From the NCBI RefSeq assembly GCF_988242995.1, contig NZ_OZ547043.1: a DNA stretch of 64,000 bases. The stretch is one strand, 5' to 3'. Of this stretch, positions 18,034 to 44,310 are shown piece after piece (the stretch's first letter is position 1; each line of letters starts with the position of its first letter). The notes beneath the pieces are model-generated. The model worked only from the letters and a program-made list of their open reading frames with translations, was not told the origin of the DNA and made no database searches. The position numbers were made by a program, and so were the translations under genes.

Positions 18034-18050
18034 GCTGCCTCCATCTCATT

Positions 18051-18319: not shown

Positions 18320-20881
18320 ATGAGTGCAATAGAAAATTTCGATGCCCATACGCCCATGATGCAGCAATATCTCAAGCTGAAAGCCCAGCATCCCGAGATC
18401 CTGCTGTTTTACCGGATGGGTGATTTTTATGAACTGTTTTATGACGACGCAAAACGCGCGTCGCAACTGCTGGATATTTCACTGACCAAACGCGGTGCTT
18501 CGGCGGGAGAGCCGATCCCGATGGCGGGGATCCCCTACCATGCGGTGGAAAACTACCTCGCCAAACTGGTGAATCAGGGCGAGTCCGTTGCCATCTGCGA
18601 ACAAATTGGCGATCCGGCGACCAGCAAAGGTCCAGTTGAGCGCAAAGTTGTGCGTATCGTTACGCCAGGCACCATCAGCGATGAAGCCCTGTTACAAGAG
18701 CGCCAGGACAATCTGCTGGCGGCTATCTGGCAGGACAGTAAAGGTTTCGGCTACGCGACGCTGGATATCAGTTCCGGTCGTTTTCGCCTGAGCGAACCGG
18801 CTGACCGGGAAACGATGGCGGCAGAACTGCAACGCACTAATCCGGCGGAACTGCTATATGCAGAAGATTTTGCTGAGATGTCGCTGATTGAAGGTCGTCG
18901 CGGTCTGCGCCGTCGTCCGCTGTGGGAGTTTGAAATCGACACCGCGCGCCAGCAGTTGAATCTGCAATTTGGCACCCGCGATCTGGTCGGTTTTGGCGTC
19001 GAGAACGCGCCGCGCGGACTTTGTGCTGCCGGTTGTCTGTTGCAGTATGCGAAAGATACCCAACGTACGACTCTGCCGCATATTCGTTCTATCACTATGG
19101 AACGTGAGCAGGACAGCATCATTATGGATGCCGCGACGCGTCGTAACCTGGAAATTACCCAGAACCTGGCGGGCGGTGCGGAAAACACGCTGGCTTCAGT
19201 GCTCGACTGCACTGTAACGCCGATGGGTAGTCGTATGCTGAAACGCTGGCTGCATATGCCAGTGCGCGATACCCGCGTGTTGCTTGAGCGCCAGCAAACT
19301 ATTGGCGCATTGCAGGATTTCACCGCCGAGCTACAGCCGGTGCTGCGTCAGGTCGGCGACCTGGAACGTATTCTGGCGCGTCTGGCTTTACGAACTGCTC
19401 GCCCACGCGATCTGGCCCGTATGCGTCACGCTTTCCAGCAACTGCCGGAGCTGCGTGCGCAGTTAGAAAATGTCGATAGCGCTCCGGTACAGGCGCTACG
19501 TGAAAAAATGGGCGAGTTTGCCGAGCTGCGCGATCTGCTGGAGCGGGCAATCATCGACACACCGCCAGTGCTGGTACGCGACGGTGGTGTTATCGCATCG
19601 GGCTATAACGAAGAGCTGGATGAGTGGCGCGCGCTGGCTGACGGCGCGACCGATTATCTGGAGCGTCTGGAAGTCCGCGAGCGTGAACGTACTGGCCTGG
19701 ACACGCTGAAAGTCGGCTTTAACGCGGTTCATGGTTATTACATTCAGATCAGCCGTGGACAAAGCCATCTGGCACCCATCAACTACATGCGTCGCCAGAC
19801 GCTGAAAAACGCCGAGCGCTACATCATTCCAGAGCTAAAAGAGTACGAAGATAAAGTTCTCACCTCAAAAGGCAAAGCACTGGCACTGGAAAAACAACTT
19901 TATGAAGAGCTGTTCGACCTGCTGTTGCCGCATCTGGAAGCGTTGCAACAGAGCGCGAGCGCGCTGGCGGAACTTGATGTGCTGGTTAACCTGGCGGAAC
20001 GGGCCTATACCCTGAACTACACCTGCCCGACCTTCATTGATAAACCGGGTATTCGCATCACCGAAGGTCGCCATCCGGTGGTTGAACAGGTACTGAACGA
20101 GCCATTTATCGCCAACCCGCTGAACCTGTCGCCGCAGCGTCGCATGTTGATCATTACCGGTCCGAATATGGGCGGTAAAAGTACCTATATGCGCCAGACC
20201 GCACTGATTGCGCTGATGGCCTACATCGGCAGCTATGTACCGGCACAAAAAGTCGAGATTGGACCTATCGACCGTATCTTCACCCGCGTAGGGGCAGCGG
20301 ATGATCTGGCATCCGGGCGTTCAACCTTTATGGTGGAGATGACCGAAACCGCCAATATTCTGCATAACGCCACCGAGTACAGTCTGGTGCTGATGGATGA
20401 GATTGGGCGCGGGACGTCCACTTACGATGGTCTGTCGCTGGCGTGGGCGTGCGCGGAAAATCTGGCGAATAAGATTAAAGCGTTGACGTTGTTTGCCACC
20501 CACTATTTCGAGCTGACCCAGTTACCGGAGAAAATGGAAGGCGTCGCCAACGTGCATCTCGATGCACTGGAGCACGGCGACACCATTGCCTTTATGCACA
20601 GCGTGCAGGATGGCGCGGCGAGCAAAAGCTACGGCCTGGCGGTTGCAGCTCTGGCGGGCGTGCCAAAAGAGGTTATTAAGCGCGCACGGCAAAAACTGCG
20701 TGAGCTGGAAAGCATTTCGCCGAACGCCGCCGCGACACAGGTCGATGGCACGCAGATGTCGCTGCTTTCAGTGCCGGAAGAAACCTCGCCAGCGGTCGAA
20801 GCACTGGAAAATCTCGACCCGGATTCACTGACTCCGCGTCAGGCGCTGGAATGGATTTATCGCTTGAAGAGTCTGGTGTAA
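18320..20881 (+). CDS. mutS: DNA mismatch repair protein MutS
   Basis: 853-aa ORF; [25 protein letters not shown]...; Walker [10 protein letters not shown]. Confidence 0.97.
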
Positions 20882-20886
20882 TAACA

Positions 20887-20915
20887 ATTCCCGATAGTCT
20901 TTTGCTATCGGGAAT
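20887..20915 (+). terminator. Possible mutS terminator hairpin
   Basis: ATTCCCGATAG-N7-CTATCGGGAAT inverted repeat directly after the mutS stop; weak U-tract. Confidence 0.35.
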
Positions 20916-20986
20916 ATTAACGACAACTGACGAATCAAATAAAAACACCCTGTATAATAGGAAATCTTATTTTACAGGGTAAAACC

Positions 20987-21643
20987 ATGCCATCTACACG
21001 CTATCAAAAAATTAATGCCCATCACTATCGTTATATATGGGCCGTTGGTGATATTCATGGTGACTATCAATTATTACAATCCCGCTTACATCAACTCTCT
21101 TTTTGCCCTGAAACCGACTTACTTATTTCTGTCGGCGATAATATTGATCGTGGGCCGGAGAGTCTTAACGTGCTGCGCCTGCTAAACCAGCCCTGGTTTA
21201 CATCGGTTAAAGGCAACCATGAAGCGATGGCGCTTGATGCATTCGAAACTGGCGATGGAAATATGTGGCTTGCCAGCGGCGGCGACTGGTTCTTTGAATT
21301 AAATGAGACGGAACAACAAGAAGCAATAAATCTGTTGCTGAAATTTCATCGCCTTCCACATATTATTGAAATCACTAACGACATAATAAAATATGTCATC
21401 GCACATGCAGATTATCCAGGGAATGAATATCTCTTTGGCAAAGAAATAGCGGAGAGAGAACTACTCTGGCCTGTTGATCGTGTGCAGAAATCGCTTAATG
21501 GCGAGTTACAACAAATAAACGGCGCTGATTATTTTATATTTGGACATATGATGTTTGATAACATTCAGACGTTCGCAAACCAGATTTATATTGATACCGG
21601 ATCGCCGAAAAGCGGGCGGCTGTCATTTTATAAAATAAAGTAG
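20987..21643 (+). CDS. pphB: Serine/threonine protein phosphatase 2
   Basis: 218-aa ORF with GDIHG and GDNIDRG metallophosphatase motifs. Confidence 0.92.
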   Translation: MPSTRYQKINAHHYRYIWAVGDIHGDYQLLQSRLHQLSFCPETDLLISVGDNIDRGPESLNVLRLLNQPWFTSVKGNHEAMALDAFETGDGNMWLASGGDWFFELNETEQQEAINLLLKFHRLPHIIEITNDIIKYVIAHADYPGNEYLFGKEIAERELLWPVDRVQKSLNGELQQINGADYFIFGHMMFDNIQTFANQIYIDTGSPKSGRLSFYKIK

Positions 21644-21693: not shown

Positions 21694-22461
21694 TTATTCA
21701 TTTTTCGCTACCAGCAAAAAGAGATCCTGCTTCGCCAGCGCGCGACTGGCACTCTCCGGCAAACCGTCGTCTGTAATAATCTGATCAAACTCGCTTAATG
21801 GTAACGCCAGCCATGTCGCCACCTGACCATATTTCGTCGCATCACAGACCAAAACTCGCTGGCGGCTGGCACTGGCAATCGCCCGTTTCACCGTGACTTT
21901 ATCTTCCGCTGGCGTAGAAATCCCCCGCACACTCCATGACGATGCAGAAATAAAAGCCTGATCAATCATCAGGCTGCGCAGCATGGTCGCAGCGGCTTCC
22001 CCGACACAGGAACGGTTTTCCCGACACACTGCACCGCCAGTGTGAATAATTGTGCAATTACTGTTGTCGAGCAAGTAGTCCGCAATAACGAAATCGTTTG
22101 TGACCACAGTCAGTGACTCCATGTGAATCAGATGCTGTGCTATCGCTAGCGTGGTCGTTCCCGCATCCAGATAGATACAACTTCCCGGCTGAACAAGACT
22201 TGCCGCCAGCTTGCCAATAGCCGCTTTTTGCGTCATTGCCAGCGCAGTTTTTACCTGATGAGAAGGTTCATGCGCCACGCGTCCCGGAGACTGGACGCCT
22301 CCGGACACCAGCACAACAGCTCCCTGCTGCTCCAGTTTTTGTAAATCCCGACGAATGGTCATATGTGACACATTCATTCTGTCCGTTAGTTCAGCAATAC
22401 TGACAATGCCTTTTTCAGCTACCATCTCAAGGATGATTTGGCGACGCTCTACGGGTATCAA
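21694..22461 (-). CDS. ygbI: DeoR-family transcriptional regulator
   Basis: ORF 21694..22491; N-terminal HTH; likely TTG start at 22461 giving 255 aa. Confidence 0.85.
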   Translation of the reverse strand: MIPVERRQIILEMVAEKGIVSIAELTDRMNVSHMTIRRDLQKLEQQGAVVLVSGGVQSPGRVAHEPSHQVKTALAMTQKAAIGKLAASLVQPGSCIYLDAGTTTLAIAQHLIHMESLTVVTNDFVIADYLLDNSNCTIIHTGGAVCRENRSCVGEAAATMLRSLMIDQAFISASSWSVRGISTPAEDKVTVKRAIASASRQRVLVCDATKYGQVATWLALPLSEFDQIITDDGLPESASRALAKQDLFLLVAKNE

Positions 22462-22656
22462 CTTTTGCTCCTTCCTTTGTCCTGCTGACATTCTACGCTA
22501 TTTGCCTGCGAAACGTGCGCGGCGCAACTAACACTTAGTTCACATAAAATAACACACAATGTTAATTTATGTGAATCAGCTCACCATATCGTTATCTTCC
22601 AGCGCTTATATTCACAATATCAAACAAAATATCACTTAAATTAACAAGGAGAGCAG

Positions 22657-23565
22657 ATGAAAACGGGATCTGAGTTTCATGTCGGTATCGTTGGCTTAGG
22701 GTCAATGGGAATGGGAGCAGCACTGTCATGTGTCCGCGCAGGTCTTTCTACCTGGGGCGCAGACCTGAACAGCAATGCCTGCGCTACGTTGAAAGAGGCA
22801 GGTGCTTGCGGGGTTTCTGATAACGCCGCGACGTTTGCCGAAAAACTGGACGCTCTGCTGGTGCTGGTGGTCAATGCGGCCCAGGTTAAACAGGTGCTGT
22901 TTGGTGAAACAGGCGTTGCACAACATCTGAAACCCGGTACGGCAGTAATGGTTTCTTCCACTATCGCTAGTGCTGATGCGCAAGAAATTGCTACCGCTCT
23001 GGCTGGATTCGATCTGGAAATGCTGGATGCGCCAGTTTCTGGTGGTGCAGTAAAAGCCGCTAACGGTGAAATGACTGTCATGGCCTCCGGTAGCAATATT
23101 GCCTTTGAACGACTGGCACCCGTGCTGGAAGCCGTTGCCGGAAAAGTTTATCGCATAGGTGCAGAACCGGGACTAGGTTCGACCGTAAAAATTATTCACC
23201 AGTTGTTAGCGGGCGTACATATTGCTGCCGGAGCCGAAGCGATGGCACTTGCAGCCCGTGCGGGGATCCCGCTGGATGTGATGTATGACGTCGTGACCAA
23301 TGCCGCCGGAAATTCCTGGATGTTCGAAAACCGGATGCGTCATGTGGTGGATGGCGATTACACCCCGCATTCAGCCGTCGATATTTTTGTTAAGGATCTT
23401 GGTCTGGTTGCCGATACAGCCAAAGCCCTGCACTTCCCGCTGCCATTGGCCTCAACAGCATTGAATATGTTCACCAGCGCCAGTAACGCGGGTTACGGGA
23501 AAGAAGACGATAGCGCAGTTATCAAGATTTTCTCTGGCATCACTCTACCGGGAGCGAAATCATGA
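22657..23565 (+). CDS. ygbJ: NAD-dependent L-threonate dehydrogenase (3-hydroxyisobutyrate dehydrogenase family)
   Basis: 302-aa ORF; N-terminal Rossmann GxGxxG (IVGLGSMG). Confidence 0.88.
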   Translation: MKTGSEFHVGIVGLGSMGMGAALSCVRAGLSTWGADLNSNACATLKEAGACGVSDNAATFAEKLDALLVLVVNAAQVKQVLFGETGVAQHLKPGTAVMVSSTIASADAQEIATALAGFDLEMLDAPVSGGAVKAANGEMTVMASGSNIAFERLAPVLEAVAGKVYRIGAEPGLGSTVKIIHQLLAGVHIAAGAEAMALAARAGIPLDVMYDVVTNAAGNSWMFENRMRHVVDGDYTPHSAVDIFVKDLGLVADTAKALHFPLPLASTALNMFTSASNAGYGKEDDSAVIKIFSGITLPGAKS

Positions 23566-24824
23566 TCAAGATTGGCGTTATCGCCGATGATTTTACCGGC
23601 GCGACGGATATCGCCAGTTTTCTGGTGGAAAACGGTCTACCAACGGTACAAATTAACGGTGTTCCAACAGGTAAAATGCCGGAAGCAATCGACGCACTGG
23701 TGATCAGCCTGAAAACGCGTTCCTGTCCGGTTGTTGAAGCCACACAGCAATCGCTGGCGGCTCTGAGCTGGTTGCAACAGCAAGGTTGCAAACAGATCTA
23801 TTTCAAATACTGCTCTACTTTCGACAGTACGGCGAAAGGTAATATCGGCCCGGTTACCGATGCATTAATGGATGCTCTCGACACGCCGTTTACGGTCTTC
23901 TCTCCGGCCCTGCCGGTCAACGGACGTACGGTTTATCAGGGGTATTTGTTCGTAATGAATCAACTGCTGGCCGAATCTGGGATGCGCCATCACCCGGTAA
24001 ATCCCATGACCGACAGCTATCTTCCCCGTCTGGTTGAAGCGCAATCCACAGGGCGCTGCGGCGTCGTTTCGGCACATGTTTTCGAACAAGGTGTGGATGC
24101 CGTTCGTCAAGAGCTGGCTCGCTTACAGCAAGAGGGCTACCGCTACGCGGTGCTTGATGCGCTGACCGAACACCATCTGGAAATTCAGGGAGAAGCCTTG
24201 CGCGATGCCCCACTGGTAACGGGCGGTTCTGGTCTGGCGATTGGCCTTGCCCGGCAGTGGGCGCAAGAAAACGGTAACCAGGCTCGCAAAGCAGGGCATC
24301 CGCTCGCTGGGCGCGGCGTAGTGCTCTCCGGTTCATGCTCTCAAATGACCAACCGCCAGGTAGCACATTACCGTCAAATTGCACCAGCCCGTGAAGTTGA
24401 TGTGGCACGCTGCCTCTCAATTGAAACTCTGGCCGCTTATGCACACGAACTGGCAGAGTGGGTTCTGGGCCAGGAAAGTGTACTTGCTCCACTGGTTTTT
24501 GCCACCGCCAGCACTGACGCATTGGCAGCAATTCAACAGCAATACGGTGCACAAAAAGCCAGTCAGGCAGTAGAAACACTGTTTTCTCAACTAGCGGCGC
24601 GGTTAGCAGCGGAAGGCGTGACACGCTTTATTGTCGCAGGCGGTGAGACCTCCGGCGTAGTCACACAGAGCCTGGGAATAAAAGGGTTTCATATTGGCCC
24701 AACCATTTCTCCCGGCGTGCCGTGGGTAAACGCACTGGATAAACCTGTCTCACTCGCCCTTAAATCTGGCAACTTCGGTGATGAAGCCTTTTTTTCACGA
24801 GCCCAAAGAGAGTTTTTATCATGA
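23562..24824 (+). CDS. ygbK: 3-oxo-tetronate kinase (four-carbon acid sugar kinase family)
   Basis: 420-aa ORF overlapping ygbJ stop by 4 bp; synteny. Confidence 0.85.
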   Translation: MIKIGVIADDFTGATDIASFLVENGLPTVQINGVPTGKMPEAIDALVISLKTRSCPVVEATQQSLAALSWLQQQGCKQIYFKYCSTFDSTAKGNIGPVTDALMDALDTPFTVFSPALPVNGRTVYQGYLFVMNQLLAESGMRHHPVNPMTDSYLPRLVEAQSTGRCGVVSAHVFEQGVDAVRQELARLQQEGYRYAVLDALTEHHLEIQGEALRDAPLVTGGSGLAIGLARQWAQENGNQARKAGHPLAGRGVVLSGSCSQMTNRQVAHYRQIAPAREVDVARCLSIETLAAYAHELAEWVLGQESVLAPLVFATASTDALAAIQQQYGAQKASQAVETLFSQLAARLAAEGVTRFIVAGGETSGVVTQSLGIKGFHIGPTISPGVPWVNALDKPVSLALKSGNFGDEAFFSRAQREFLS

Positions 24825-25459
24825 GCGATTTCGCAAAAGTAGAGCCGTCTTTGCGAGAGGAGATGACGCGGATTGCCAGTTCATTCTTTCAGCGCGGCTA
24901 TGCAACCGGTTCGGCTGGCAATCTGTCGCTGCTTTTACCTGACGGGAATTTACTGGCGACACCGACAGGTTCATGCCTGGGCAATCTCGATCCGCAGCGG
25001 CTTTCCAAAGTCGCCGCGGATGGCGAATGGTTAAGTGGTGACAAACCCTCGAAAGAGGTGCTCTTTCATCTGGCGCTGTATCGCAACAATCCGCGCTGTA
25101 AAGCGGTGGTGCATTTGCACAGCACATGGTCGACGGCGCTTTCCTGCCTGCAAGGGCTGGACAGCAGCAACGTTATTCGTCCGTTCACACCATACGTGGT
25201 GATGCGGATGGGAAATATCCCGCTGGTGCCTTATTACCGACCGGGCGATAAACGCATCGCACAGGATCTGGCGGAACTGGCAGCAGACAATCAGGCTTTT
25301 TTACTGGCAAATCATGGCCCAGTGGTTTGCGGTGAAAGCCTGCAAGAAGCCGCCAACAATATGGAAGAGCTGGAGGAAACGGCAAAGCTGATTTTTATTC
25401 TCGGTGATCGCCCGATCCGTTATCTGACCGCAGGTGAAATTGCGGAATTAAGGAGTTAA
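24821..25459 (+). CDS. ygbL: 3-oxo-tetronate 4-phosphate decarboxylase (class II aldolase/adducin family)
   Basis: 212-aa ORF; synteny. Confidence 0.85.
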
Positions 25460-25463
25460 TGCA

Positions 25464-26240
25464 ATGCCTCGTTTTGCAGCTAATTTATCCATGATGTTCA
25501 CCGAAGTGCCTTTTATTGAACGCTTCGCCGCAGCGCGAAAAGCCGGGTTCGATGCTGTGGAATTTCTGTTTCCCTATGACTACTCCACCCTGCAAATCCA
25601 AAAGCAACTGGAGCAAAACCATCTGACACTGGCGCTGTTCAATACCGCTCCCGGAGATATTAATGCGGGGGAATGGGGATTATCCGCCCTTCCCGGACGT
25701 GAGCACGAAGCACACGCAGACATCGACCTGGCACTGGAATATGCATTGGCGCTCAATTGTGAACAAGTCCATGTGATGGCAGGCGTCGTGCCCGCTGGCG
25801 AAGATGCTGAACGGTACAGGGCAGTATTTATCGATAATCTCCGCTACGCTGCCGACCGCTTTGCGCCACACGGCAAGCGAATATTAGTTGAAGCACTCAG
25901 CCCCGGCGTTAAGCCTCATTATCTCTTCTCCAGCCAGTATCAGGCACTGGCTATTGTTGAAGAAGTTGCGCGAGATAACGTGTTTATTCAACTAGATACT
26001 TTTCATGCGCAAAAAGTAGATGGCAACCTGACGCATTTAATCCGCGACTACGCCGGGAAATATGCGCACGTACAAATTGCCGGACTACCTGATCGACATG
26101 AACCGGACGATGGAGAAATCAACTATCCGTGGCTGTTCCGTCTGTTCGATGAGGTGGGATATCAGGGCTGGATCGGTTGTGAATATAAACCTCGTGGCCT
26201 CACCGAAGAAGGGCTTGGCTGGTTTGACGCCTGGCGCTAA
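25464..26240 (+). CDS. ygbM: 2-oxo-tetronate isomerase (hydroxypyruvate isomerase-like TIM barrel)
   Basis: 258-aa ORF; synteny. Confidence 0.85.
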
Positions 26241-26328
26241 TTCGTTAAATCCCTAATTACAACGTACCCATACATCCCCCCATCTACGGATGGGGTAGGT
26301 TAACTATAACTTTCAGACAGGGTTTCCC

Positions 26329-27693
26329 ATGTCCACAATTACATTGTTATGCATTGCGTTAACTGGCGTAATCATGCTGTTGCTGCTGGTCATCAAGGCA
26401 AAGGTACAACCATTCGTTGCTCTGCTCCTCGTCAGCCTGTTAGTCGCACTTGCGGCGGGTATACCGGCGGGCGAAGTGGGTAAAGTGATGATCGCCGGGA
26501 TGGGCGGTGTGCTTGGTTCCGTCACTATTATTATTGGTCTGGGCGCTATGCTGGGGCGTATGATCGAACACTCTGGTGGTGCAGAGTCACTGGCTAATTA
26601 TTTCAGTCGCAAGTTAGGTGACAAACGAACTATCGCTGCGCTGACTCTGGCAGCGTTCTTCCTCGGTATTCCCGTCTTCTTTGATGTCGGCTTTATTATT
26701 CTTGCGCCAATCATTTACGGTTTTGCCAAGGTTGCCAAAATATCGCCACTCAAATTTGGCCTGCCTGTCGCTGGAATCATGCTAACTGTTCATGTGGCGG
26801 TACCGCCGCATCCAGGCCCTGTCGCCGCAGCGGGGTTACTCCACGCAGACATCGGCTGGCTAACCATCATCGGTATTGCGATTTCTATTCCCGTAGGGAT
26901 TGTTGGCTACTTTGCAGCGAAAATAATCAATAAGCGCCAATATGCGATGTCGGTGGAAGTACTGGAACAGATGCAACTGGCTCCGGCCAGTGAGGAAGGC
27001 GCGACAAAATTAAGCGATAAAATAAATCCACCGGGCGTCGCGCTGGTCACCTCGCTAATTGTTATTCCTATCGCGATTATCATGGCGGGTACGGTTTCCG
27101 CAACACTGATGCCGCCTTCGCATCCCCTGCTTGGTACGCTACAGCTGATCGGCTCACCAATGGTAGCTCTAATGATTGCGCTGGTACTGGCATTCTGGTT
27201 ATTGGCTTTACGTCGCGGCTGGAGCTTACAACACACCAGCGACATTATGGGCTCAGCCCTTCCCACTGCGGCGGTAGTGATTTTGGTTACTGGTGCTGGA
27301 GGGGTATTTGGCAAAGTGCTGGTGGAATCGGGCGTCGGCAAAGCCCTTGCCAACATGCTACAAATGATTGACCTGCCTCTGTTACCAGCCGCATTTATTA
27401 TTTCACTGGCGCTGCGTGCATCGCAGGGGTCAGCAACCGTAGCAATCCTGACAACCGGCGGGTTACTCTCAGAAGCGGTGATGGGATTGAATCCGATTCA
27501 GTGCGTATTGGTGACGCTGGCAGCCTGCTTTGGTGGGCTTGGCGCGTCACATATTAATGACTCAGGGTTCTGGATTGTGACCAAATATCTGGGGTTGTCG
27601 GTAGCAGACGGTCTGAAAACCTGGACAGTGTTAACGACCATTCTCGGTTTTACCGGATTCTTAATTACCTGGTGCGTATGGGCGGTAATTTGA
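26329..27693 (+). CDS. ygbN: GntP-family permease
   Basis: 454-aa polytopic membrane ORF; synteny. Confidence 0.87.
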   Translation: MSTITLLCIALTGVIMLLLLVIKAKVQPFVALLLVSLLVALAAGIPAGEVGKVMIAGMGGVLGSVTIIIGLGAMLGRMIEHSGGAESLANYFSRKLGDKRTIAALTLAAFFLGIPVFFDVGFIILAPIIYGFAKVAKISPLKFGLPVAGIMLTVHVAVPPHPGPVAAAGLLHADIGWLTIIGIAISIPVGIVGYFAAKIINKRQYAMSVEVLEQMQLAPASEEGATKLSDKINPPGVALVTSLIVIPIAIIMAGTVSATLMPPSHPLLGTLQLIGSPMVALMIALVLAFWLLALRRGWSLQHTSDIMGSALPTAAVVILVTGAGGVFGKVLVESGVGKALANMLQMIDLPLLPAAFIISLALRASQGSATVAILTTGGLLSEAVMGLNPIQCVLVTLAACFGGLGASHINDSGFWIVTKYLGLSVADGLKTWTVLTTILGFTGFLITWCVWAVI

Positions 27694-27700
27694 CCTTAAT

Positions 27701-27733
27701 AAAAAGGTCCGATGGGCATCGGACCTTTTATTT
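27701..27733. terminator. Bidirectional rho-independent terminator between ygbN and the convergent decarboxylase operon
   Basis: AAAAAGGTCCGATG-GG-CATCGGACCTTTTATTT: 10-bp perfect stem flanked by A-run and T-run. Confidence 0.7.
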
Positions 27734-27968
27734 AGCGCTTACCTTCCGCCAGCAGCGGCGGGATGCTCGGCACCATCGGCGCGTCATCAATATCTTTCTG
27801 CGTCATGCGGAACGCTTCGGGATAATGTTCGCGGCTAGTGCGGCGTAGCGGTTCGGTATCGCGCCAGGTATAAAGGCAATGCTGGCACTGGTAGACCGTC
27901 CAGACATCTTTCACCGGCGATTTCGCCATCACTTCAATCTGTTCATCGGCACAACGTGGACAAATCAT
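27732..27968 (-). CDS. ecdD: Small subunit of UbiD-type aromatic acid decarboxylase (BsdD/EcdD-like)
   Basis: 78-aa ORF with CPRC...CQHC zinc-ribbon-like motif; downstream of UbiD homolog. Confidence 0.7.
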   Translation of the reverse strand: MICPRCADEQIEVMAKSPVKDVWTVYQCQHCLYTWRDTEPLRRTSREHYPEAFRMTQKDIDDAPMVPSIPPLLAEGKR

Positions 27969-27978
27969 CTTGTTCTCC

Positions 27979-29406
27979 TTATTTACGTGCGGCCAGCATA
28001 GCAGTCAGTTTTTCAGCCCAGGCTTTGGTTTCCGGTAAATCCACCACCGGCTGGCTGTAGTGACCACGGTTGTCCGGGGCGACAGGCGTGGTGGCGTCGA
28101 TAATCAGCTTGTCGGTGATCCCCGCCGGGCTTGAGCCAGGGTCGAGTTCCAGCACGGACATATTTGGCAACTGCACCAGGTCGCCTGCCGGGTTCACTTT
28201 CGAGGAGAGCGCCCACATCACCTGCGGCAGGTTGAACGGATCAACGTCTTCATCGACCATAATCACCATCTTCACGTAGCCCAGACCGTGCGGCGTGGTC
28301 ATTGCACGCAGGCCCACCGCGCGGGCAAAGCCGCCGTAGCGTTTTTTGGTGGAGATAATCGCCAACAGGCCGTGGGTGTACATGGCGTTTACCGCCTGCA
28401 CTTCCGGGAACTCGGCTTTCAGTTGCTGATACAGCGGCACGCAGGTGGCAGGCCCCATCAGGTAGTCGATTTCGGTCCACGGCATACCAAGATAGAGCGA
28501 TTCGAAAATCGGTTTGGTACGGTAAGAGACTTTATCGATACGCACCACGGTCATGTTACGCCCGCCGGAGTAGTGACCGGTAAACTCACCGAACGGCCCT
28601 TCAATCTCACGTTTACGACTTTCGATAACCCCTTCGAGGATCACTTCCGAGCCCCACGGCACATCAAAACCGGTCAGCGGGGCGGTGGCGATCGGGTACG
28701 GGCTTTCGCGCAGCGCGCCCGCCATTTCGTACTCAGACTGATCGTATTTCAGCGGCGTGGCGCCCATCAGGATGATGATCGGATCGTTACCTAGGGTGAT
28801 GGCAATCGGCAGATCTTCACCGCGTTCTTCCGCTTTATGCAGATGCAGAGCGATATCGTGCATCGGCACCGGTTGCAGGCCGAGCTTACGTTTGCCCTTC
28901 ACTTCCATACGATAGATACCGACGTTCTGCTTGCCGAAGTTATCCGGGTCGAGCGGATCGCGGGAAACCACGCACGCTTTGTCGAGATAGAAACCGCCAT
29001 CGCCATCGTTTAAACGAAACAGCGGCAGGATATCGAACAGGTTGATCTCGTCGCCATCGACGGTGTTCTGCGCCCAGGCTGGATTGGCGCGGCGCTCCGG
29101 GGCAATCGGGAAGTTATCCCAGCGGCGGATAAACTCATCAATCTGCTTTTTGACCGGGGTGTTTGGCGGCAGGCCGAGGGAAATCGCGTGGTTCTGCCAG
29201 GAACCGATGGCATTCATCGCCACACGGGCATCGGTAAAGCCGCGAATATTGTCAAACCACAGCGCGGGCGCGCCGTCGCCGATACGCCCGGTGGCGTTAG
29301 CTGCTGCTGCCAGATCCGGTTCCGCGTTCACCTCTTCGCTGATTTTCAGTAACTGGCCGTGGTCATCAAGCGCCTGTAAAAAGCTGCGTAAATCATCAAA
29401 TGCCAT
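27979..29406 (-). CDS. ecdC: UbiD-family (prFMN-dependent) aromatic acid decarboxylase
   Basis: 475-aa ORF with UbiD-like length and translation; operon context with UbiX homolog. Confidence 0.8.
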   Translation of the reverse strand: MAFDDLRSFLQALDDHGQLLKISEEVNAEPDLAAAANATGRIGDGAPALWFDNIRGFTDARVAMNAIGSWQNHAISLGLPPNTPVKKQIDEFIRRWDNFPIAPERRANPAWAQNTVDGDEINLFDILPLFRLNDGDGGFYLDKACVVSRDPLDPDNFGKQNVGIYRMEVKGKRKLGLQPVPMHDIALHLHKAEERGEDLPIAITLGNDPIIILMGATPLKYDQSEYEMAGALRESPYPIATAPLTGFDVPWGSEVILEGVIESRKREIEGPFGEFTGHYSGGRNMTVVRIDKVSYRTKPIFESLYLGMPWTEIDYLMGPATCVPLYQQLKAEFPEVQAVNAMYTHGLLAIISTKKRYGGFARAVGLRAMTTPHGLGYVKMVIMVDEDVDPFNLPQVMWALSSKVNPAGDLVQLPNMSVLELDPGSSPAGITDKLIIDATTPVAPDNRGHYSQPVVDLPETKAWAEKLTAMLAARK

Positions 29407-29999
29407 TATTCATTCTCCTGAGAAAAATTCCGGACCTGCGGCAATCCTTGCCAGCGCCTGGCGTGGGGATGTTCGAGGCCAAATTGATCCAGCACGCGGG
29501 CTACCACGTGGTGGACAATGTCATCTACCGTTTCGGGATGGTTATAAAAGGCAGGCATCGGCGGCACCATCGCCACGCCCATGCGTGAAAGTGCGAGCAT
29601 ATTTTCGAGATGGATGGTGCTAAGCGGCATTTCACGCGGCACCAGCACTAGTTTGCGGCCTTCTTTGAGCACGACGTCCGCCGCGCGCCCTACCAGGCCA
29701 TCGGCGTAACCGACACGGATACCGGCGAGCGTTTTCATACTGCACGGAATAACGATCATGCCGTCGGTACGAAAGGAACCTGAGGAGATGGTCGCCGCCT
29801 GATCCGCCGGGTTATGACTGAAGTCTGCGAGGGCAGCAACATCGCGAGCGCTGTAAGGCGTTTCCAGTTCAATGGTGGTTTTCGCCCACTTCGACATCAC
29901 CAGATGAGTCTCGACATTCGGCATCTCCCGCAGCGCTTGCAGTAATGCCACCCCAAGAGGCGCACCGGTAGCCCCTGTCATCCCGACGATCAGTCTCAT
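29406..29999 (-). CDS. ecdB: UbiX/Pad1-family flavin prenyltransferase
   Basis: 197-aa ORF MRLIVGMTGATGAPLGVALLQAL... typical of UbiX/Pad1. Confidence 0.82.
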   Translation of the reverse strand: MRLIVGMTGATGAPLGVALLQALREMPNVETHLVMSKWAKTTIELETPYSARDVAALADFSHNPADQAATISSGSFRTDGMIVIPCSMKTLAGIRVGYADGLVGRAADVVLKEGRKLVLVPREMPLSTIHLENMLALSRMGVAMVPPMPAFYNHPETVDDIVHHVVARVLDQFGLEHPHARRWQGLPQVRNFSQENE

Positions 30000-30016
30000 T
30001 GTTTATTCTCTTAATT

Positions 30017-30030
30017 GTTCGTATACGAAC
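30017..30030. promoter_or_regulatory. Perfect 14-bp palindrome GTTCGTATACGAAC in divergent promoter region; candidate MarR-family operator
   Basis: Read directly; lies between ecdB start (29999) and the MarR-like gene start. Confidence 0.4.
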
Positions 30031-30107
30031 GTTATTATTAAAATACGCCTCTGTTTTCATCGCGGCAAGCACTGAAAAGTAACAACATCTTCTTCGTCAC
30101 TGAAAAA

Positions 30108-30122
30108 CCGCTATGATAGCGG
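30108..30122. promoter_or_regulatory. Inverted repeat CCGCTAT-G-ATAGCGG; second candidate operator
   Basis: 7-bp perfect arms around one central base, about 25 bp upstream of the MarR-like start. Confidence 0.3.
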
Positions 30123-30145
30123 CAGATAGTTTGCCCGGAGTTTAC

Positions 30146-30553
30146 ATGGCGTTACGAAATAAAGCGTTCCATCAGTTACGACAGCTTTTTCAGCAGCACA
30201 CGGCTCGCTGGCAGCACGAGTTACCTGACCTCACCAAACCACAGTACGCGGTGATGCGCGCCATTGCTGATAAGCCTGGTATCGAACAGGTGGCACTGAT
30301 AGAAGCAGCAGTCAGCACCAAAGCAACGCTGGCAGAAATGTTGGCAAGAATGGAAAATCGTGGCTTAGTCAGACGTGAACATGACGCCGCTGACAAGCGG
30401 CGTCGCTTTGTCTGGCTGACTGCCGAAGGAGAAAAGGTACTTGCTGCGGCGATCCCCATTGGTGACAGTGTGGATGAGGAATTTTTGGGGCGTTTGAGTG
30501 CAGAAGAGAAGGAGCTGTTTATGCAGTTGGTGCGCAAGATGATGAGCAAATAG
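30146..30553 (+). CDS. MarR/SlyA-family transcriptional regulator
   Basis: ORF 30113..30553; start taken at ATG 30146 behind GGAG; winged-helix region; divergent from decarboxylase operon. Confidence 0.75.
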   Translation: MALRNKAFHQLRQLFQQHTARWQHELPDLTKPQYAVMRAIADKPGIEQVALIEAAVSTKATLAEMLARMENRGLVRREHDAADKRRRFVWLTAEGEKVLAAAIPIGDSVDEEFLGRLSAEEKELFMQLVRKMMSK

Positions 30554-30620
30554 GATGCTGATTGCCGGGTAGGACGCTGACGAGTCTTATCCAGGCGACA
30601 AAACACACCGACTTCCCAAA

Positions 30621-30657
30621 CAAAAGAAAAAGGCCAGCCTCGCTTGAGACTGGCCTT
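30621..30657 (-). terminator. rpoS rho-independent terminator
   Basis: Minus strand AAGGCCAG-loop-CTGGCCTT followed by TTTTTCTTTTGTTT, directly downstream of rpoS stop. Confidence 0.6.
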
Positions 30658-30673
30658 TCTGACAGATGCTTAC

Positions 30674-31665
30674 TTACTCGCGGAACAGCGCTTCGATATT
30701 CAGCCCCTGCGTTTGCAGGATTTCGCGCAAACGGCGCAGGCCTTCAACCTGAATCTGGCGAACACGTTCACGGGTGAGGCCAATTTCACGACCTACATCT
30801 TCCAGTGTTGCCGCTTCGTACCCCAGCAAACCGAATCGACGTGCCAGTACTTCACGCTGTTTGGCGTTCAGCTCGAACAGCCATTTGACGATGCTCTGCT
30901 TCATATCGTCATCTTGCGTGGTATCTTCCGGACCGTTCTCTTTTTCATCGGCCAGGATGTCCAGCAACGCTTTTTCGGAATCACCACCCAGCGGGGTGTC
31001 TACCGAGGTAATGCGCTCGTTAAGACGAAGCATACGGCTGACGTCATCAACTGGCTTATCCAGTTGCTCTGCGATCTCTTCCGCACTTGGTTCGTGGTCC
31101 AGTTTATGGGACAACTCGCGTGCGGTTCGCAGGTAAACGTTCAGCTCCTTTACGATGTGAATCGGCAAACGAATAGTACGGGTTTGGTTCATAATCGCCC
31201 GTTCGATCGTCTGGCGAATCCACCAGGTTGCGTATGTTGAGAAGCGGAAACCACGTTCCGGGTCAAACTTCTCTACCGCGCGGATCAGCCCCAGGTTGCC
31301 CTCTTCGATCAGGTCCAGCAACGCCAGACCACGATTGCCATAACGGCGGGCAATTTTTACCACCAGACGCAAGTTACTCTCGATCATCCGGCGGCGGGAG
31401 GCAACATCTCCACGCAGTGCGCGACGCGCAAAATAAACTTCTTCTTCGGCCGTTAACAGTGGTGAATAACAATCTCACCAAGGTAAAGCTGAGTCGCGTC
31501 CAACACACGCTGTGTGGCTCCCTGCGATAACAGTTCCTCTTCGGCCAAATCGTTATCACTGGGTTCCTCTTCTACTAAGGCCTTTTCGTCAAAAACCTCA
31601 ACTCCGTTCTCATCAAATTCCGCATCTTCATTTAAATCATGAACTTTCAGCGTATTCTGACTCAT
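30674..31665 (-). pseudogene. rpoS: RNA polymerase sigma factor RpoS (sigma-S), disrupted by a -1 frameshift
   Basis: N-terminal [17 protein letters not shown]...LYLGEI reads in ORF 31453..31701 and stops after IVIHHC; the rest ([10 protein letters not shown]...ALFRE) is ORF 30674..31387 in another frame; span is 992 nt, not a multiple of 3. Confidence 0.8.
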
Positions 31666-31727
31666 AAGGTGGCTCCTACCCGTGATCCCTTGACGGAACA
31701 TTCAAGCAAAAGCCTGGTTCCGCCGAT

Positions 31728-32867
31728 TTATCGCTGCGGCAAATAACGCAGCGGGTTTACGGATTTCCCCTTGTAACGAATTTCAAAATGCAAGCGTGTT
31801 GAACTGGTTCCGGTGCTACCCATGGTTGCTATTTTTTGCCCCGCCTTCACTTCTTGTTGTTCCCGGACCAGCATTGTGTCGTTATGGGCGTAGGCACTCA
31901 GGTAATCATCATTATGTTTGATGATAATCAGATTACCGTAGCCGCGCAGCGCGTTACCGGCATAAACAACGCGGCCATCTGCGGTCGCGATAATTGCCTG
32001 TCCTTTGCTGCCTGCGATATCAATCCCCTTGTTGCCCCCCTCAGAAGCGCCAAAGGTTTCGATCACTTTGCCCTCAGTCGGCCAGCGCCAGGTGGAGATA
32101 GGCGTACTGGTTGATGTACTGCTGACAGTCGGCTCGGTTGTGCTTGCTGTTGGTACCGTTACAGGCGCTGTGACCGTGGTCGCAGTTGGCTTGTTGTTCG
32201 GCAACATTTTGTTAGCACTCTGTTCACCCGAAGACTCAGAATACGTAATTGTCGGTTGCGAAGCAACAGCAACGGTGGAATTTTGTGCAGGCTTGATCAC
32301 AACTCCTTGCTCTGCTGCATCGGCCTGGGTAATGGCATTTCCGCCAGTGATTGGCGTACCGGAAGCATTACCCACCTGTAAGGTCTGACCGACGTTCAGC
32401 GCGTATGGTGCCTGAATATTGTTGCGCTGAGCAAGGTCACGGAAATCGTTGCCAGTAATCCAGGCGATATAGAAAAGTGTGTCGCCTTTTTTCACGGTAT
32501 AGGTACTGCCGCTATAACTGCCTTTCGGAATGTTCCCATACTGACGGTTGTAGACGATGCGTCCGTTTTCCATCTGTACCGGCTGCTGAGCTACTGGCTG
32601 CACCGGCTGGATTTGCGGTTGTTGAGTTGCCTGAATTTGTGGCTGCTGTACCGGCTGAATTTGCGGTTGCTGAGCTGTAGACGTCGTCCCCATTTTCGGC
32701 GGCGGCGTAATCAACATACCAGAATTGGTATTTGCAGGCGCATTGCCATTAACGGAGCTGACCGGGGCCGGTGGATTTGAAGTGTCAGAACAGCCTGCCA
32801 GCCATAGCGAAACCAGTGACAAAGCCGCAATGCGGCGAACGGTGAATTTTGGGCTTCCCGCGCTCAT
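31728..32867 (-). CDS. nlpD: Murein hydrolase activator lipoprotein NlpD (LysM + LytM domains)
   Basis: 379-aa ORF with lipobox LAGC and Q/P-rich repeat region. Confidence 0.95.
32606..32677. repeat. Three imperfect ~24-bp tandem repeats inside nlpD encoding QQPQIQ(P/A)V repeats
   Basis: Repeated CTGAATTTGCGGTTGCTGAG-like units read from sequence. Confidence 0.6.
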
Positions 32868-33005
32868 TTATCCCCCAGGAAAAATTGGTTAATAACCAGT
32901 GACATAATTACCGTGCAAGGCACCATACTGAACACTGGAAAAGATGTTCCGATACGCTGACCTGCGGCAAAATAACCAGGAAAAATCCAGGTATTTCCTC
33001 ACGTT

Positions 33006-34367
<1,362 letters not shown>

Positions 34368-34387
<20 letters not shown>

Positions 34388-35417
34388 AATCACCTGTTGT
34401 GTTGATAAGTTCCCTGACAACGCTGGTTGCAAAACTTCCCGCCGGAAGCCAGAAACGGATTTCTACGGTGACGTCATCCCACCAGTTCCAGCTTAATTGT
34501 TGCGGATACAGCAGCATCGCTCTGCGCGCGGCTTCAACTTTTTCGCGCACCAGTAAGGCTTGTAATTCAGTTTCTGCGGCGACAGCTGCTTGTTCGAATG
34601 CCAACGCTTCACGCTGAGTTCCCCATTCGCCACTGCCCGGCAATGCGGCGGTTATCATCAGCTCTTTATCGTTGACGCGACGCTGTAATTCCGCCAGTTC
34701 TTCGGTGGTTGCGACAAACCAGCTACCACGTCCGGCTAATTGTAGCGCATCGCCGTCAACAACTTGATTAACGTCTGCTTTTTTGAGGCGCTCAGCAACA
34801 ATCTGATTAAACAACGCACTGCGGGCTGCCGACAACCAAAAACTCCGTTTATTGCGATCGCGCACCGGAGTATTGGTTTGCGCCCAGCGCAGCGCGCCCT
34901 GCAAGTTGCTACCGCCAATCCCAAAACGTTGGGCACCGAAGTAGTTCGGTACACCTTTTACGCAAATATCGATCAGACGTTGTTCAACGTCATCGCGATT
35001 GCTCACTTCGCGCAGAACCAGGGTAAAGGCGTTACCTTTCAGCGCGCCTAAACGCAGCTTGCGCTTGTGCCGCGCATACTCCAGCACCTGGCAGCCTTCC
35101 AGTTGAAAGGCGCTCAGATCGGGCATTTCCTTGCCCGGCACGCGAGCGCATAACCACTGTTCCGTAACAGCATGTTTGTCTTTTTGCCCAGCGAAGCTGA
35201 CTTCACGGGAATGAATTTTCAGGAATTTCGCCAGTGCATCCGCCACAAAACGGGTATTGCAGCCGTTTTTGAGGATTCTAACCAGAATATGCTCACCTTC
35301 ACCATCAGGCTCAAAGCCCAAATCTTCCACCACCACAAAGTCTTCCGGATTGGCTTTCAGCAGCCCGGTGCCTTGCGGTTTACCGTGGAGGTAAGTGAGA
35401 TTATCAAACTCAATCAT
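34368..35417 (-). CDS. truD: tRNA pseudouridine(13) synthase
   Basis: 349-aa ORF; synteny between surE and ispF. Confidence 0.92.
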
Positions 35418-35893
35418 TTTGTTGCCTTAATGAGTAGCGCCACCGCTTCACAGGCAATCCCTTCCCCACGTCCGGTAAATCCAAGTTTTTCCGTAGTAGT
35501 GGCTTTCACGTTAACATCATCCATATGGCAGCCGAGATCTTCGGCAATAAACACGCGCATTTGTGGAATGTGCGGCAACATCTTCGGTGCCTGAGCGATG
35601 ATAGTGACATCGACGTTGCCCAGGGTATAACCCTTCGCCTGAATACGACGCCAGGCTTCGCGTAGCAGCTCGCGGCTGTCAGCACCTTTAAATGCCGGAT
35701 CGGTATCCGGGAACAGTTTGCCGATATCCCCCAGCGCCGCCGCGCCAAGCAATGCATCGGTCAACGCATGGAGCGCCACGTCGCCATCAGAATGCGCCAG
35801 CAATCCTTTTTCGTAAGGAATGCGTACGCCACCAATGATAATTGGGCCTTCACCGCCAAAGGCGTGTACGTCAAAACCGTGTCCAATTCGCAT
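35414..35893 (-). CDS. ispF: 2-C-methyl-D-erythritol 2,4-cyclodiphosphate synthase
   Basis: 159-aa [17 protein letters not shown]... matches IspF. Confidence 0.95.
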
Positions 35894-36603
35894 TATGTAT
35901 TCTCCTGATGGATGGTTCGGGTGAGGTAAAACTCGGCCAGTGCCAAATCTTCCGGGCGCGTGACTTTAATGTTATCCGCGCGGCCTTCGACCAACTGCGG
36001 ATGAAATCCGCAATATTCCAGCGCCGAGGCTTCGTCGGTAATGGTAGCGCCTTCATTTAGAGCGCGCATCAGGCAGTCATGTAACAGCTCACGAGGGAAA
36101 AATTGCGGCGTCAGCGCGTGCCATAAGCCGTTGCGATCAACGGTATGAGCAATGGCATTTTTGCCCGGTTCGGCACGTTTCATCGTATCGCGCACTGGTG
36201 CGGCGAGGATCCCCCCCGTGCGGCTGGTTTCGCTCAACGCCAACAATCGCGCGAGGTCATCCTGATGCAGACAAGGACGAGCGGCGTCATGCACCAATAC
36301 CCACTGCGCGTCGCCAGCGGCTTTCAGACCTGCCAGCACCGAATCGGCACGCTCATCACCGCCATCTACAACGGTGATTTGCGGATGATTCGCCAGAGGA
36401 AGTTGTGCAAAACGGCTATCGCCAGGACTTATGGCAATGACGACATGTTTCACCCGGGGGTGCGCCAGCAGCGCATGCACCGAGTGTTCAAGAATGGTTT
36501 GATTACCGATTGAGAGATATTGCTTAGGACATTCCGTTTGCATTCGACGGCCAAATCCGGCCGCCGGAACCACGGCGCAAACATCCAAATGAGTGGTTGC
36601 CAT
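35893..36603 (-). CDS. ispD: 2-C-methyl-D-erythritol 4-phosphate cytidylyltransferase
   Basis: 236-aa ORF with PAAGFGRRM motif. Confidence 0.95.
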
Positions 36604-36621
36604 GTTAATTCCTGGGCTGAT

Positions 36622-36933
36622 TTATCGATTGTTTTGCCCCGCAGACTGTGCGCGCTTCGACGCGTCAGGCACCAGACGATAAAAAGTTTCGCCCGGCCTG
36701 GTCATGCTGAGTTCATTACGCGCACGCTCTTCGAGCGCCTCCTGGCCGCCATTGAGATCGTCAATTTCGGCAAAAAGTTGATCGTTTCGCGCTTTAAGTT
36801 TCGCGTTTGTAGCTTGCTGTGCCGCCACATCATCATTGACGCGGGTATAGTCATGTATACCGTTCTTACCGAACCACAGCGAATACTGTAGCCAGACCAG
36901 AATAGCCAGCAACAGCAGCGTTAGTTTACCCAT
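36622..36933 (-). CDS. ftsB: Cell division protein FtsB
   Basis: 103-aa ORF, N-terminal TM segment plus coiled coil. Confidence 0.93.
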
Positions 36934-37126
36934 CCTGCCCCCTGAAAAACGGCATCTTCATCCCATGCATCCGAAGACGACTCTACATCCTCTGTTGGGG
37001 ATACCGCGACAACGCGGGCAAATGTACCACATTTGTCCATTGTTACGTATACCCAGGGCGTGCAGAACATAATCTCATTATTAGTTACGGTTTGAATTAT
37101 GAACAGAGGAGACAAGAAAGTACAAA

Positions 37127-37450
37127 TTAGCCCAGTAGCCACATAAACAGTGCGCCAAACATAATGCCTACTGTCATCAGGGTGAAAACAATACTGTAGC
37201 GTAGCTTTCCGTCCATCAATGAATGCAGCGCAATCCCCACCACTACCGCGACAGGCATCAGTGCCAGAAAGAAAGGCCAGGTGTAGATAAAGAAGAACAG
37301 CGTGTTAGAGCCATAAATCAACATCGGCATCGCCAGCGCAAATAACCAGGAGATAAAACCGACCACGGCACCAGGCAGTGACCATGTGGTTTCTTCATCC
37401 TCAGTAAGGCTGTCGTTATTTGTTAGTGTAATGTTATGGCTATTACGCAT
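37127..37450 (-). CDS. ygbE: Inner membrane protein YgbE
   Basis: 107-aa hydrophobic ORF; synteny. Confidence 0.85.
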   Translation of the reverse strand: MRNSHNITLTNNDSLTEDEETTWSLPGAVVGFISWLFALAMPMLIYGSNTLFFFIYTWPFFLALMPVAVVVGIALHSLMDGKLRYSIVFTLMTVGIMFGALFMWLLG

Positions 37451-37499
37451 ATTTGATCCTGTTACTTTGACGAACCGGGCATGGAAACCCGGTGGTGTC

Positions 37500-38105
37500 T
37501 CAGGATCTGATAATATCGTTCTGTCTCAACAGATCTAATAATTGCTGTACCAAATTTGTTACTAATTGTTCACCATTGAGATGAATTTCTGCCGATTCAG
37601 GCGCTTCGTAAACGGAATCTATTCCCGTAAAGTTGCGCAGTTCACCGGCACGCGCTTTCTTATATAAGCCTTTTGGATCGCGGGCTTCGCAAATCGCCAG
37701 CGGCGTATCGACAAACACTTCGATAAAGCGCCCTTCTCCTACGCGTTCACGAACCATCTGGCGTTCGGCGCGGTGTGGCGAGATAAATGCGGTCAGCACC
37801 ACCAGTCCGGCTTCAACCATCAAATTCGCCACTTCACCGACGCGACGGATATTCTCTTTACGATCGGCATCGCTAAAACCGAGATCGCTGCATAATCCGT
37901 GGCGAACATTGTCGCCATCCAGCAGATACGTACTGACGCCGAGTTTATGTAACGCCTCCTCCAGCGCCCCGGCGACCGTTGATTTACCGGACCCGGAGAG
38001 GCCGGTAAACCACAGCACTACACCACGATGACCGTGGTGTAGCTCGCGTTGTTGTACAGTGACTGGATGGCTATGCCAGACGACGTTTTCGTCATGCAGC
38101 GCCAT
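37500..38105 (-). CDS. cysC: Adenylylsulfate (APS) kinase
   Basis: 201-aa ORF with P-loop GLSGSGKST. Confidence 0.95.
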
Positions 38106-39532: not shown

Positions 39533-39533
39533 C

Positions 39534-43096: not shown

Positions 43097-44306
<1,210 letters not shown>

Positions 44307-44310
<4 letters not shown>

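Follow-up and report, generated by a model that had tools for sequence, protein, structure and literature searches.

The system considered here is a four-gene module, comprising three decarboxylase genes and a divergent regulator, that lies between ygbN and rpoS in a window of 64,000 nucleotides (nt; the whole stretch of DNA analyzed, from contig NZ_OZ547043.1 of NCBI RefSeq assembly GCF_988242995.1). Loci of this kind are already known: they have been mapped since 1999-2000 and serve as a marker in strain typing, assays and crystal structures exist for the enzyme family, and the regulator, HosA, has been crystallized and built into 4-hydroxybenzoate biosensors. A "2.9-kb" segment between mutS and rpoS reportedly features in the work of LeClerc in 1999 and of Herbelin in 2000. 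A "2.9 kb" segment carrying hosA, pad1, and yclC is also described in PMC5491219.

Among the closest known systems, EcdBCD (Pad1/YclC/YclD) and HosA of Escherichia coli O157:H7 share with the window the genes, their order, and their orientation next to rpoS; there, the ygbI-N cluster is missing and the gene for subunit D abuts pphB, whereas the window keeps ygbI-N. The hosA-HAD (hydroxyarylic acid decarboxylase) loci of enteropathogenic E. coli (EPEC) E2348/69 and uropathogenic E. coli (UPEC) UMN026 have the same layout as the window, o454/ygbN-kpdD-kpdC-kpdB-slyA/hosA-rpoS (PMC4209514), and show allelic differences only. More distant are the VdcCD enzymes of Sedimentibacter hydroxybenzoicus and Bacillus subtilis (ShdCD, BsdBCD, YclBCD), which belong to the same B-C-D family, with a four-cysteine (Cys4) D subunit and prenylated flavin mononucleotide (prFMN) as cofactor, but come from another phylum. 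The window D is longer than theirs (78 versus 68 amino acids, with an insertion at residues 40 to 45), and regulation by a divergent HosA is characteristic of the enterobacterial loci. We assign the window module, with a probability of about 0.92, to the hosA/hydroxyarylic acid decarboxylase locus, variously named EcdBCD, Pad1-YclC-YclD, KpdBCD, or the "HAD operon."

The three decarboxylase genes lie on the minus strand, with subunit D at 27732-27968 (78 amino acids), the UbiD-like subunit C at 27979-29406 (475 amino acids), and the UbiX-like subunit B at 29406-29999 (197 amino acids) in a six-frame list of open reading frames (ORFs). The stop codon of B overlaps the start codon of C (TAATG), the C-D spacer is 10 nt long and carries an AGGAG ribosome-binding site, and all three proteins would be translated from one tightly packed minus-strand transcript. 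Divergent from them on the plus strand is the MarR-type gene hosA, whose longest ORF spans 30113-30553 (146 amino acids). Its real coding sequence probably starts at the second methionine and covers 30146-30553 (135 amino acids), since the crystallized HosA begins MALRNK and PGAP gives 135 amino acids in homologous genomes. All four genes are intact. On one side, the module is bordered by ygbN, a GntP-family transporter gene (26329-27693, plus strand), and on the other by rpoS, which ends at 30674 on the minus strand.

Model scores identify each of the subunits. D reaches 121.2 bits against the NCBIfam VdcD equivalog (cut-off 30), C reaches 787.8 bits against VdcC (cut-off 650), and B reaches 312.5 bits against VdcB (cut-off 290). 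B also exceeds the cut-off of a UbiX subfamily model (257 bits; cut-off 188); its raw score of 341 against the BagM_FevK model is higher than that for VdcB yet falls under that model's own cut-off of 420. Structural entries give the same picture: residues 3 to 471 of C align with chain A, the catalytic chain, of S. hydroxybenzoicus VdcCD (PDB 7AE4; E value of 1.5e-159), D matches ShdD, the small chain of that entry (E value of 3e-11), and the full length of B matches PDB 1SBZ, which we take to be Pad1 of E. coli O157:H7 (E value of 4.8e-128). The subunits can be equated with VdcD/EcdD/KpdD (D), VdcC/EcdC/YclC/KpdC (C), and VdcB/EcdB/Pad1/KpdB (B).

Residues expected to be important for function are present in both C and D. 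In the alignment, R166 (within IYR) and E269 and E274 (within EGPFGE) of C are identical to ShVdcC, and they are presumably the counterparts of R173, E277, and E282 of Fdc1. With the "ERE motif" named in PMC8379154, we read these three residues as the likely UbiD Glu-Arg-Glu triad. The cysteines of D stand at positions 3, 6, 28, and 31, all four aligned to ShdD, and the zinc ligands of Sedimentibacter VdcD are C3, C6, C28, and C31 (PMC8379154); D thus reads as a Cys4 zinc ribbon with two CXXC knuckles. Compared with the proteins of O157:H7 strain FRIK2533, identity is 78/78 for D, 472/475 for C, 193/197 for B, and 129/135 for HosA.

The function of such a system can be outlined from published work on near-identical proteins. 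B, a UbiX-type flavin prenyltransferase, would make prFMN, with which the UbiD-type C would reversibly remove or add CO2 para to the hydroxyl of 4-hydroxybenzoate and vanillate, with phenol and guaiacol, respectively, as the products. D, the small zinc-ribbon protein, would bind C stoichiometrically and would be needed for its activity. On its own, VdcC is inactive or nearly so and requires VdcD, which contacts the catalytic-triad loops (PMC8379154). In the substrate table of PMC6644310, EcdCD of O157:H7 is grouped with the 4-hydroxybenzoate decarboxylases and credited with two substrates that it converts reversibly; B. subtilis BsdBCD has this same pair, and the starred (highest-activity) substrate of EcdCD is the one common to all 4-hydroxybenzoate decarboxylases in that table. 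From context, we take the compound codes 49a and 57a used there to mean 4-hydroxybenzoate and vanillate, the former being the best substrate. The window alleles, which lie 0 to 6 residues per protein from O157:H7, would by analogy share these functions, and reversible decarboxylation of 4-hydroxybenzoate and vanillate is expected of them from the 99 to 100% identical O157:H7 enzyme. Gene identities, intactness, operator sequence, junctions, and distribution are observed here; enzyme activity, the response to 4-hydroxybenzoate, and the role of D would carry over from the literature.

The divergent regulator is identical at 132 of 134 positions to PDB 8AGA, "Transcriptional regulator HosA" (E value of 2.5e-83), and it scores below the equivalog cut-offs for SlyA (29.2 versus 120) and MarR (28.3 versus 240). 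By its sequence, it is HosA, which belongs to the MarR family, and the description "SlyA-like" reflects family resemblance only. In the spacer between hosA and B, 17 nt upstream of the B start codon, there is a perfect 14-bp palindrome, GTTCGTATACGAAC, at 30017-30030. A stretch of 28 nt of the published, UMN026-derived HosA-binding oligonucleotide, CTTAATTGTTCGTATACGAACGTTATTA, is identical at window positions 30009-30036 (PMC6261655 supplement). The same study places the HosA site at the 14-bp palindrome and reports that 4-hydroxybenzoate frees UMN026 HosA from DNA, with a ligand KD of 4.74 uM (PMC6261655). As a 2024 preprint (bioRxiv 10.1101/2024.04.24.590444) summarizes Roy & Ranjan 2016, HosA represses itself and the HAD operon, 4-hydroxybenzoate de-represses the operon, and the HosA site lies downstream of the transcription start. 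In the window, HosA would bind the palindrome between the promoter and the B start codon, repressing both the operon and hosA, and would be released from the DNA upon binding 4-hydroxybenzoate.

To follow the operator and the module beyond E. coli, we used a protein C scan of species-representative genomes, which gave 353 confirmed relatives; all locus counts below refer to the best 80 of these 353. An operator of the form GTTCG-N4-CGAAC, with at most 2 mismatches, is present at the equivalent place in the hosA-operon spacer in 76 of the 80 loci. The changes among these 76 fall mostly in the central four bases and otherwise at the first or second base. In the remaining 4, the upstream DNA is absent.

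An earlier note on this DNA, made from the letters alone, had described three minus-strand genes of 78, 475, and 197 amino acids and a divergent MarR gene between ygbN and rpoS, exactly as the ORF list has them. Its UbiX-like, UbiD-like, and zinc-ribbon identities agree with the VdcB, VdcC, and VdcD scores and the PDB matches, its MarR/SlyA-type regulator proves to be HosA, and matches to the UbiD and UbiX families were indeed found. The function that it proposed, reversible decarboxylation of hydroxybenzoate-type acids, is in line with O157:H7 EcdCD (PMC6644310) and with the response of HosA to 4-hydroxybenzoate (PMC6261655), and would hold for the window by analogy.

Several points weigh against this reading of the locus. 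A sigma-70 consensus scan of 27600-30750 found no promoter, and the operon promoters are known only via second-hand accounts of Roy & Ranjan 2016. The enzymatic claims rest on reviews and citing papers rather than primary papers, and the window proteins are not quite those of O157:H7, C differing at 3 positions (A66T, I212T, and K298R) and B at 4. Citing papers also report that flagellar motility is under HosA control, a role for which the operon model has no explanation. Finally, the physiological purpose could be detoxification of phenolic acids, anaerobic carboxylation of phenol, or regulation of the endogenous 4-hydroxybenzoate pool.

Base-by-base comparison of the junctions with K-12 MG1655 delimits a polymorphic segment of 2,895 bp (27733-30627), in place of which K-12 has 8 nt, GTGCACAG. 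The window is identical to K-12 over the 39 nt past the ygbN stop codon, up to 27732, and again over the 46 nt from 30628 to the rpoS stop codon; the stop codon of D shares one base with the left junction. Both boundaries lie at the edge of hairpins that fold on both strands, in the form of bidirectional terminators, and that are kept in K-12. The left hairpin (27702-27729) may be a terminator shared by ygbN on the plus strand and the BCD operon on the minus strand, with predicted folds of -17.1 and -16.8 kcal/mol on its two strands and T-runs on both sides. The right one (30628-30660) serves rpoS as its minus-strand terminator and is also located downstream of hosA; a terminator scan matched 30660-30627 on the minus strand, with a predicted fold of -24.5 kcal/mol.

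We then examined the segment in 5,426 complete E. coli genomes, counting it as carried when at least 80% of it was present. By this measure, 2,380 genomes (~44%) have the segment, and the others match its short flanks only; a query with the B and C genes alone retrieved 2,381. The segment is always chromosomal, with 0 of 5,411 places on plasmids. The ygbN-D junction of the window occurs in 1,601 genomes, in one of them at 100% identity. The o454-nlpD typing scheme (Ewers 2014, PMC4209514) distinguishes four patterns at this site. Pattern I lacks o454 (ygbN) and has the decarboxylase genes and slyA/hosA, as in O157:H7; in pattern II, ygbN is followed directly by rpoS, as in K-12; pattern III, found in phylogroup B2, has c3302-c3304 in the gap; and pattern IV has ygbN together with kpdD, kpdC, kpdB, and slyA, as in EPEC E2348/69 (PMC4209514). 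The window is pattern IV. Within E. coli, the locus is spread across non-B2 phylogroups and is tied to no single pathotype (PMC4209514). For annotation, this places the strain in the mutS-rpoS scheme and predicts an inducible conversion of 4-hydroxybenzoate to phenol, with the acid coming, e.g., from hydrolyzed parabens or plant phenolics.

These comparisons bear out further claims of the earlier note: O157:H7 has the segment and K-12 lacks it, so that it is not universal; the gene order and the ygbN-D junction place ygbI-N and the decarboxylase cluster together in the window; and the comparison with typing schemes that it had suggested leads to pattern IV. Its end coordinates stood in part, the gene coordinates being right and the segment extending to 30627, slightly beyond the 30553 that it gave.

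The earlier note had also called the segment an island and an insertion, and this part does not hold. Once RpoS, NlpD, MutS, HosA, B, and D had been located in each of the 80 related loci, the module proved to be linked to rpoS in 51 of them, 46 in the orientation of the window and 5 inverted. The order in the 46 is nlpD-rpoS-hosA<>B-C-D, as in the window; about 40 of these have a convergent mutS immediately after D, and there the module fills the mutS-rpoS gap. This group includes Citrobacter, Enterobacter, Klebsiella, Kluyvera, Leclercia, and Kosakonia as well as Atlantibacter, Franconibacter, Mangrovibacter, Cedecea, and Pluralibacter. In Citrobacter amalonaticus, for example, the four genes, with enzymes of equal length (197, 475, and 78 amino acids), occupy the whole gap. 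The inverted module, with D beside rpoS, is found in Salmonella enterica subsp. diarizonae (L022) and subsp. arizonae (L024) and in three Phytobacter loci (L019, L046, and L049), while in Enterobacterales farther removed, such as Rahnella, Pantoea, and Erwinia, the module is located elsewhere in the genome.

Because the same four genes adjoin rpoS in so many genera, we regard the module, from its distribution, as ancestral content of the mutS-rpoS spacer in Enterobacteriaceae and the state of K-12-type strains as derived by a clean deletion. No YgbN homologue was found in the 80 loci, and other genes of its cluster were found only in the two Salmonella loci; for this reason, the ygbI-ygbN cluster looks like a later addition to the spacer. 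The simplest reading is vertical inheritance of the module, loss in some E. coli, and allele exchange, with pphB and ygbI-N as later additions. The title of Herbelin et al. 2000, said to begin "Gene conservation and loss…," agrees with loss. Support for K-12 as the derived state at this locus is relevant wherever K-12 serves as the reference. As for the cluster itself (21700-27693), homologous genomes annotate it as an L-threonate/3-oxo-tetronate pathway (ltnD, otnK, otnC, ygbM, and ygbN, with ygbI as repressor). In the two Salmonella loci, ygbI-like genes stand on the hosA side, and L022 has ltnD- and otnK-like genes as well.

The main alternative for the origin of the segment is horizontal acquisition, as a genomic island that entered downstream of rpoS in enterohemorrhagic E. 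coli, EPEC, and Shigella lineages. The name "2.9-kb insertion" goes back to early papers. The absence of the segment from K-12 and from 56% of the E. coli genomes would fit such an origin, as would its GC content (55.5%, versus 51.7% and 52.6% in the flanks), the mosaic of alleles inside it, and the words "insertion" and "horizontally acquired" in the literature (PMC4209514; bioRxiv 10.1101/2024.04.24.590444). Yet the segment holds four genes only, with no integrase and no tRNA, no direct or inverted repeats of at least 8 nt were found at its two ends, and none of the E. coli copies is carried on a plasmid. A transposon-like insertion was rejected on the same lack of end repeats. Acquisition also has to contend with the 51 of 80 species loci in which the four genes adjoin rpoS, about 40 of them directly between rpoS and mutS. 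The presence of the module at rpoS across genera speaks against the statement in the 2024 preprint that hosA was horizontally acquired from Shigella (bioRxiv 10.1101/2024.04.24.590444). We consider an island unlikely and prefer ancestral presence followed by loss.

The remaining alternatives concern what the module does. UbiX and UbiD of the ubiquinone pathway belong to the same superfamilies as B and C and share their prFMN chemistry, and B and C might be a spare pair that decarboxylates 3-octaprenyl-4-hydroxybenzoate and not free phenolic acids. C does match the E. coli UbiD structures 2IDB and 5M1C, the former deposited as 3-octaprenyl-4-hydroxybenzoate carboxy-lyase (UbiD), but weakly (E value of ~2e-47; 1.8e-47 for 2IDB), and B, as a maker of the UbiX cofactor, could plausibly replace ubiX. 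C is nevertheless not a second UbiD, since it scores 176.7 bits against the ubiquinone-pathway UbiD equivalog (PRK10922), whose cut-off is 788, as against 788 bits for VdcC. It is also paired with a VdcD subunit, which true UbiD is without, and its predicted substrates are soluble acids; it is dispensable and polymorphic besides. Normal ubiquinone synthesis in K-12 and other strains that lack the module counts against a ubiquinone role too. In the literature, the operon is induced by free 4-hydroxybenzoate via HosA, and we give a spare ubiquinone pair almost no credence. A different main substrate, either protocatechuate, as for AroY, or gallate, or else carboxylation of phenol in the anoxic, CO2-rich gut, is suggested by the reversible, multisubstrate nature of the family, the Klebsiella enzyme taking several further acids (PMC6644310), and by the oxygen sensitivity of the Sedimentibacter enzyme (PMC8379154). 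AroY of Klebsiella and Enterobacter is likewise a UbiD-family enzyme dependent on a B-type prenyltransferase, and B-type subunits of these genera boost its protocatechuate decarboxylase activity (PMC5779730). It works without an integral D subunit, though, and is a distant match to C (E values of ~1e-25 to 1e-28; 7e-28 for 5O3M and 3e-25 for 5NY5) against 1.5e-159 for the vanillate/4-hydroxybenzoate enzyme. As the starred O157:H7 substrate is the one common to all 4-hydroxybenzoate decarboxylases (PMC6644310) and the HosA effector is 4-hydroxybenzoate (PMC6261655), a different main substrate seems improbable. It is more doubtful still that HosA, as a virulence or motility regulator, is the main product and the decarboxylase genes are secondary. 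In EPEC, HosA reportedly activates temperature-dependent flagellar motility (Ferrandiz 2005, via citing papers), and the locus was once taken as pathotype associated (PMC4209514); against this, conservation across genera is lowest for HosA among the four proteins (49 to 93%, versus 88 to 99% for C), 76 of 80 loci keep the operator beside the operon, many nonpathogenic environmental Enterobacterales have the module, and its spread in E. coli follows no single pathotype (PMC4209514). An inducible 4-hydroxybenzoate/vanillate decarboxylase under HosA control remains the reading that we favor.

The conservation of C may itself be informative. Across Enterobacterales, C is 88 to 99% identical at the amino acid level, more than MutS and NlpD and near RpoS; in the same loci, MutS is 88 to 96% identical and, among the non-Escherichia species, NlpD 71 to 89% and HosA 49 to 93%. 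At the same time, C is dispensable in 56% of E. coli. Conjecturally, and with little confidence on our part, its conservation and its fixed slot between mutS and rpoS, despite being dispensable in over half of E. coli, could mean that it has a central, unrecognized physiological role beyond merely detoxifying xenobiotics; it might control the endogenous pool of 4-hydroxybenzoate (a ubiquinone precursor) in stationary phase or carboxylate phenol in the anaerobic gut. Selection is well known to act on rpoS alleles, and on the same conjecture, the repeated loss of the module in E. coli might be linked to selection on the neighboring rpoS alleles.

Some of the related loci depart from the layout of the window. 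About 14 are without B and have hosA directly upstream of C and D (L042, L052, L054, L062, L064, L068, L073, L074, L076, L079, L083, L084, and others); these species presumably rely on their housekeeping UbiX for prFMN. In Klebsiella oxytoca (L020), an extra ~2.6 kb between rpoS and hosA (2200-4830 of that locus) encodes a LysR-type regulator of 301 amino acids, a major facilitator superfamily (MFS) transporter of 404 amino acids, and a 125-amino-acid protein, and the same spacing recurs in L016, L021, L027, L029, L036, L043, L044, and L061. Two loci lie outside Enterobacterales, in the alphaproteobacterium Martelella alba (L070) and in Vibrio salinus (L077), with C 91% and 88% identical to that of E. 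coli, respectively, and with hosA, B, and D alongside, which suggests horizontal transfer or assembly contamination. In most of loci L005 to L084, C is located at 6001-7425.

Within the E. coli collection, the best full-length match to the segment is 98.5%. The genomes closest to the window are 99.0 to 99.15% identical over 21 to 25 kb around the locus, and for the flanks (window 14000-45000), the best matches are 97.0 to 98.9% over 13.7 to 14.3 kb. On this comparison, the mutS-rpoS region in this strain is an allele combination absent from the collection of 5,426. The value of 98.5% had raised the possibility of a divergent or foreign allele, which we rejected; the segment is a mosaic of ordinary E. 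coli alleles. Its D and 3' C part is 100% identical to that of ETEC1738, and 27000-28500 and 30000-33500 are nearly identical to that genome, whereas 28500-30000, covering the whole of B along with the 5' part of C, has 44 mismatches to it. This B/5' C patch is ~3% diverged from the otherwise closest genome and 99.2% identical to another E. coli allele class, and judging by these identities, it is a recombination patch in a mosaic typical of the region. Similar clusters of mismatches are present at 18000-18500, at 19500-21500 (mutS/pphB), and at 38000-39000.

Two neighboring features deserve mention. Relative to K-12, rpoS has a 1-nt deletion at position 196 of the coding sequence (window ~31469-31470), and the frame is lost after ...LYLGEI, leaving an N-terminal ORF at 31453-31701 and a separate 237-amino-acid ORF at 30674-31387. 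The gene is a predicted pseudogene, and the strain would be RpoS null unless this is a sequencing error; together with the decarboxylase module, the frameshift describes a strain with an altered stress response. Farther away, downstream of iap, lies a type I-E CRISPR array at ~41800-43000, with a 61-nt period and the repeat CGGTTTATCCCCGCTGGCGCGGGGAACAC, followed by cas2e, cas1e, cas6e, and further cas genes from 43097. The array region is ~790 bp longer than that of ETEC1748, whose annotated array measures 395 bp. An IS element in the right flank, and with it a Shigella origin, had been considered from the four-piece matches of 30674-45000, the ~790 bp of extra sequence, and multicopy hits; the extra sequence is instead this longer type I-E CRISPR array.

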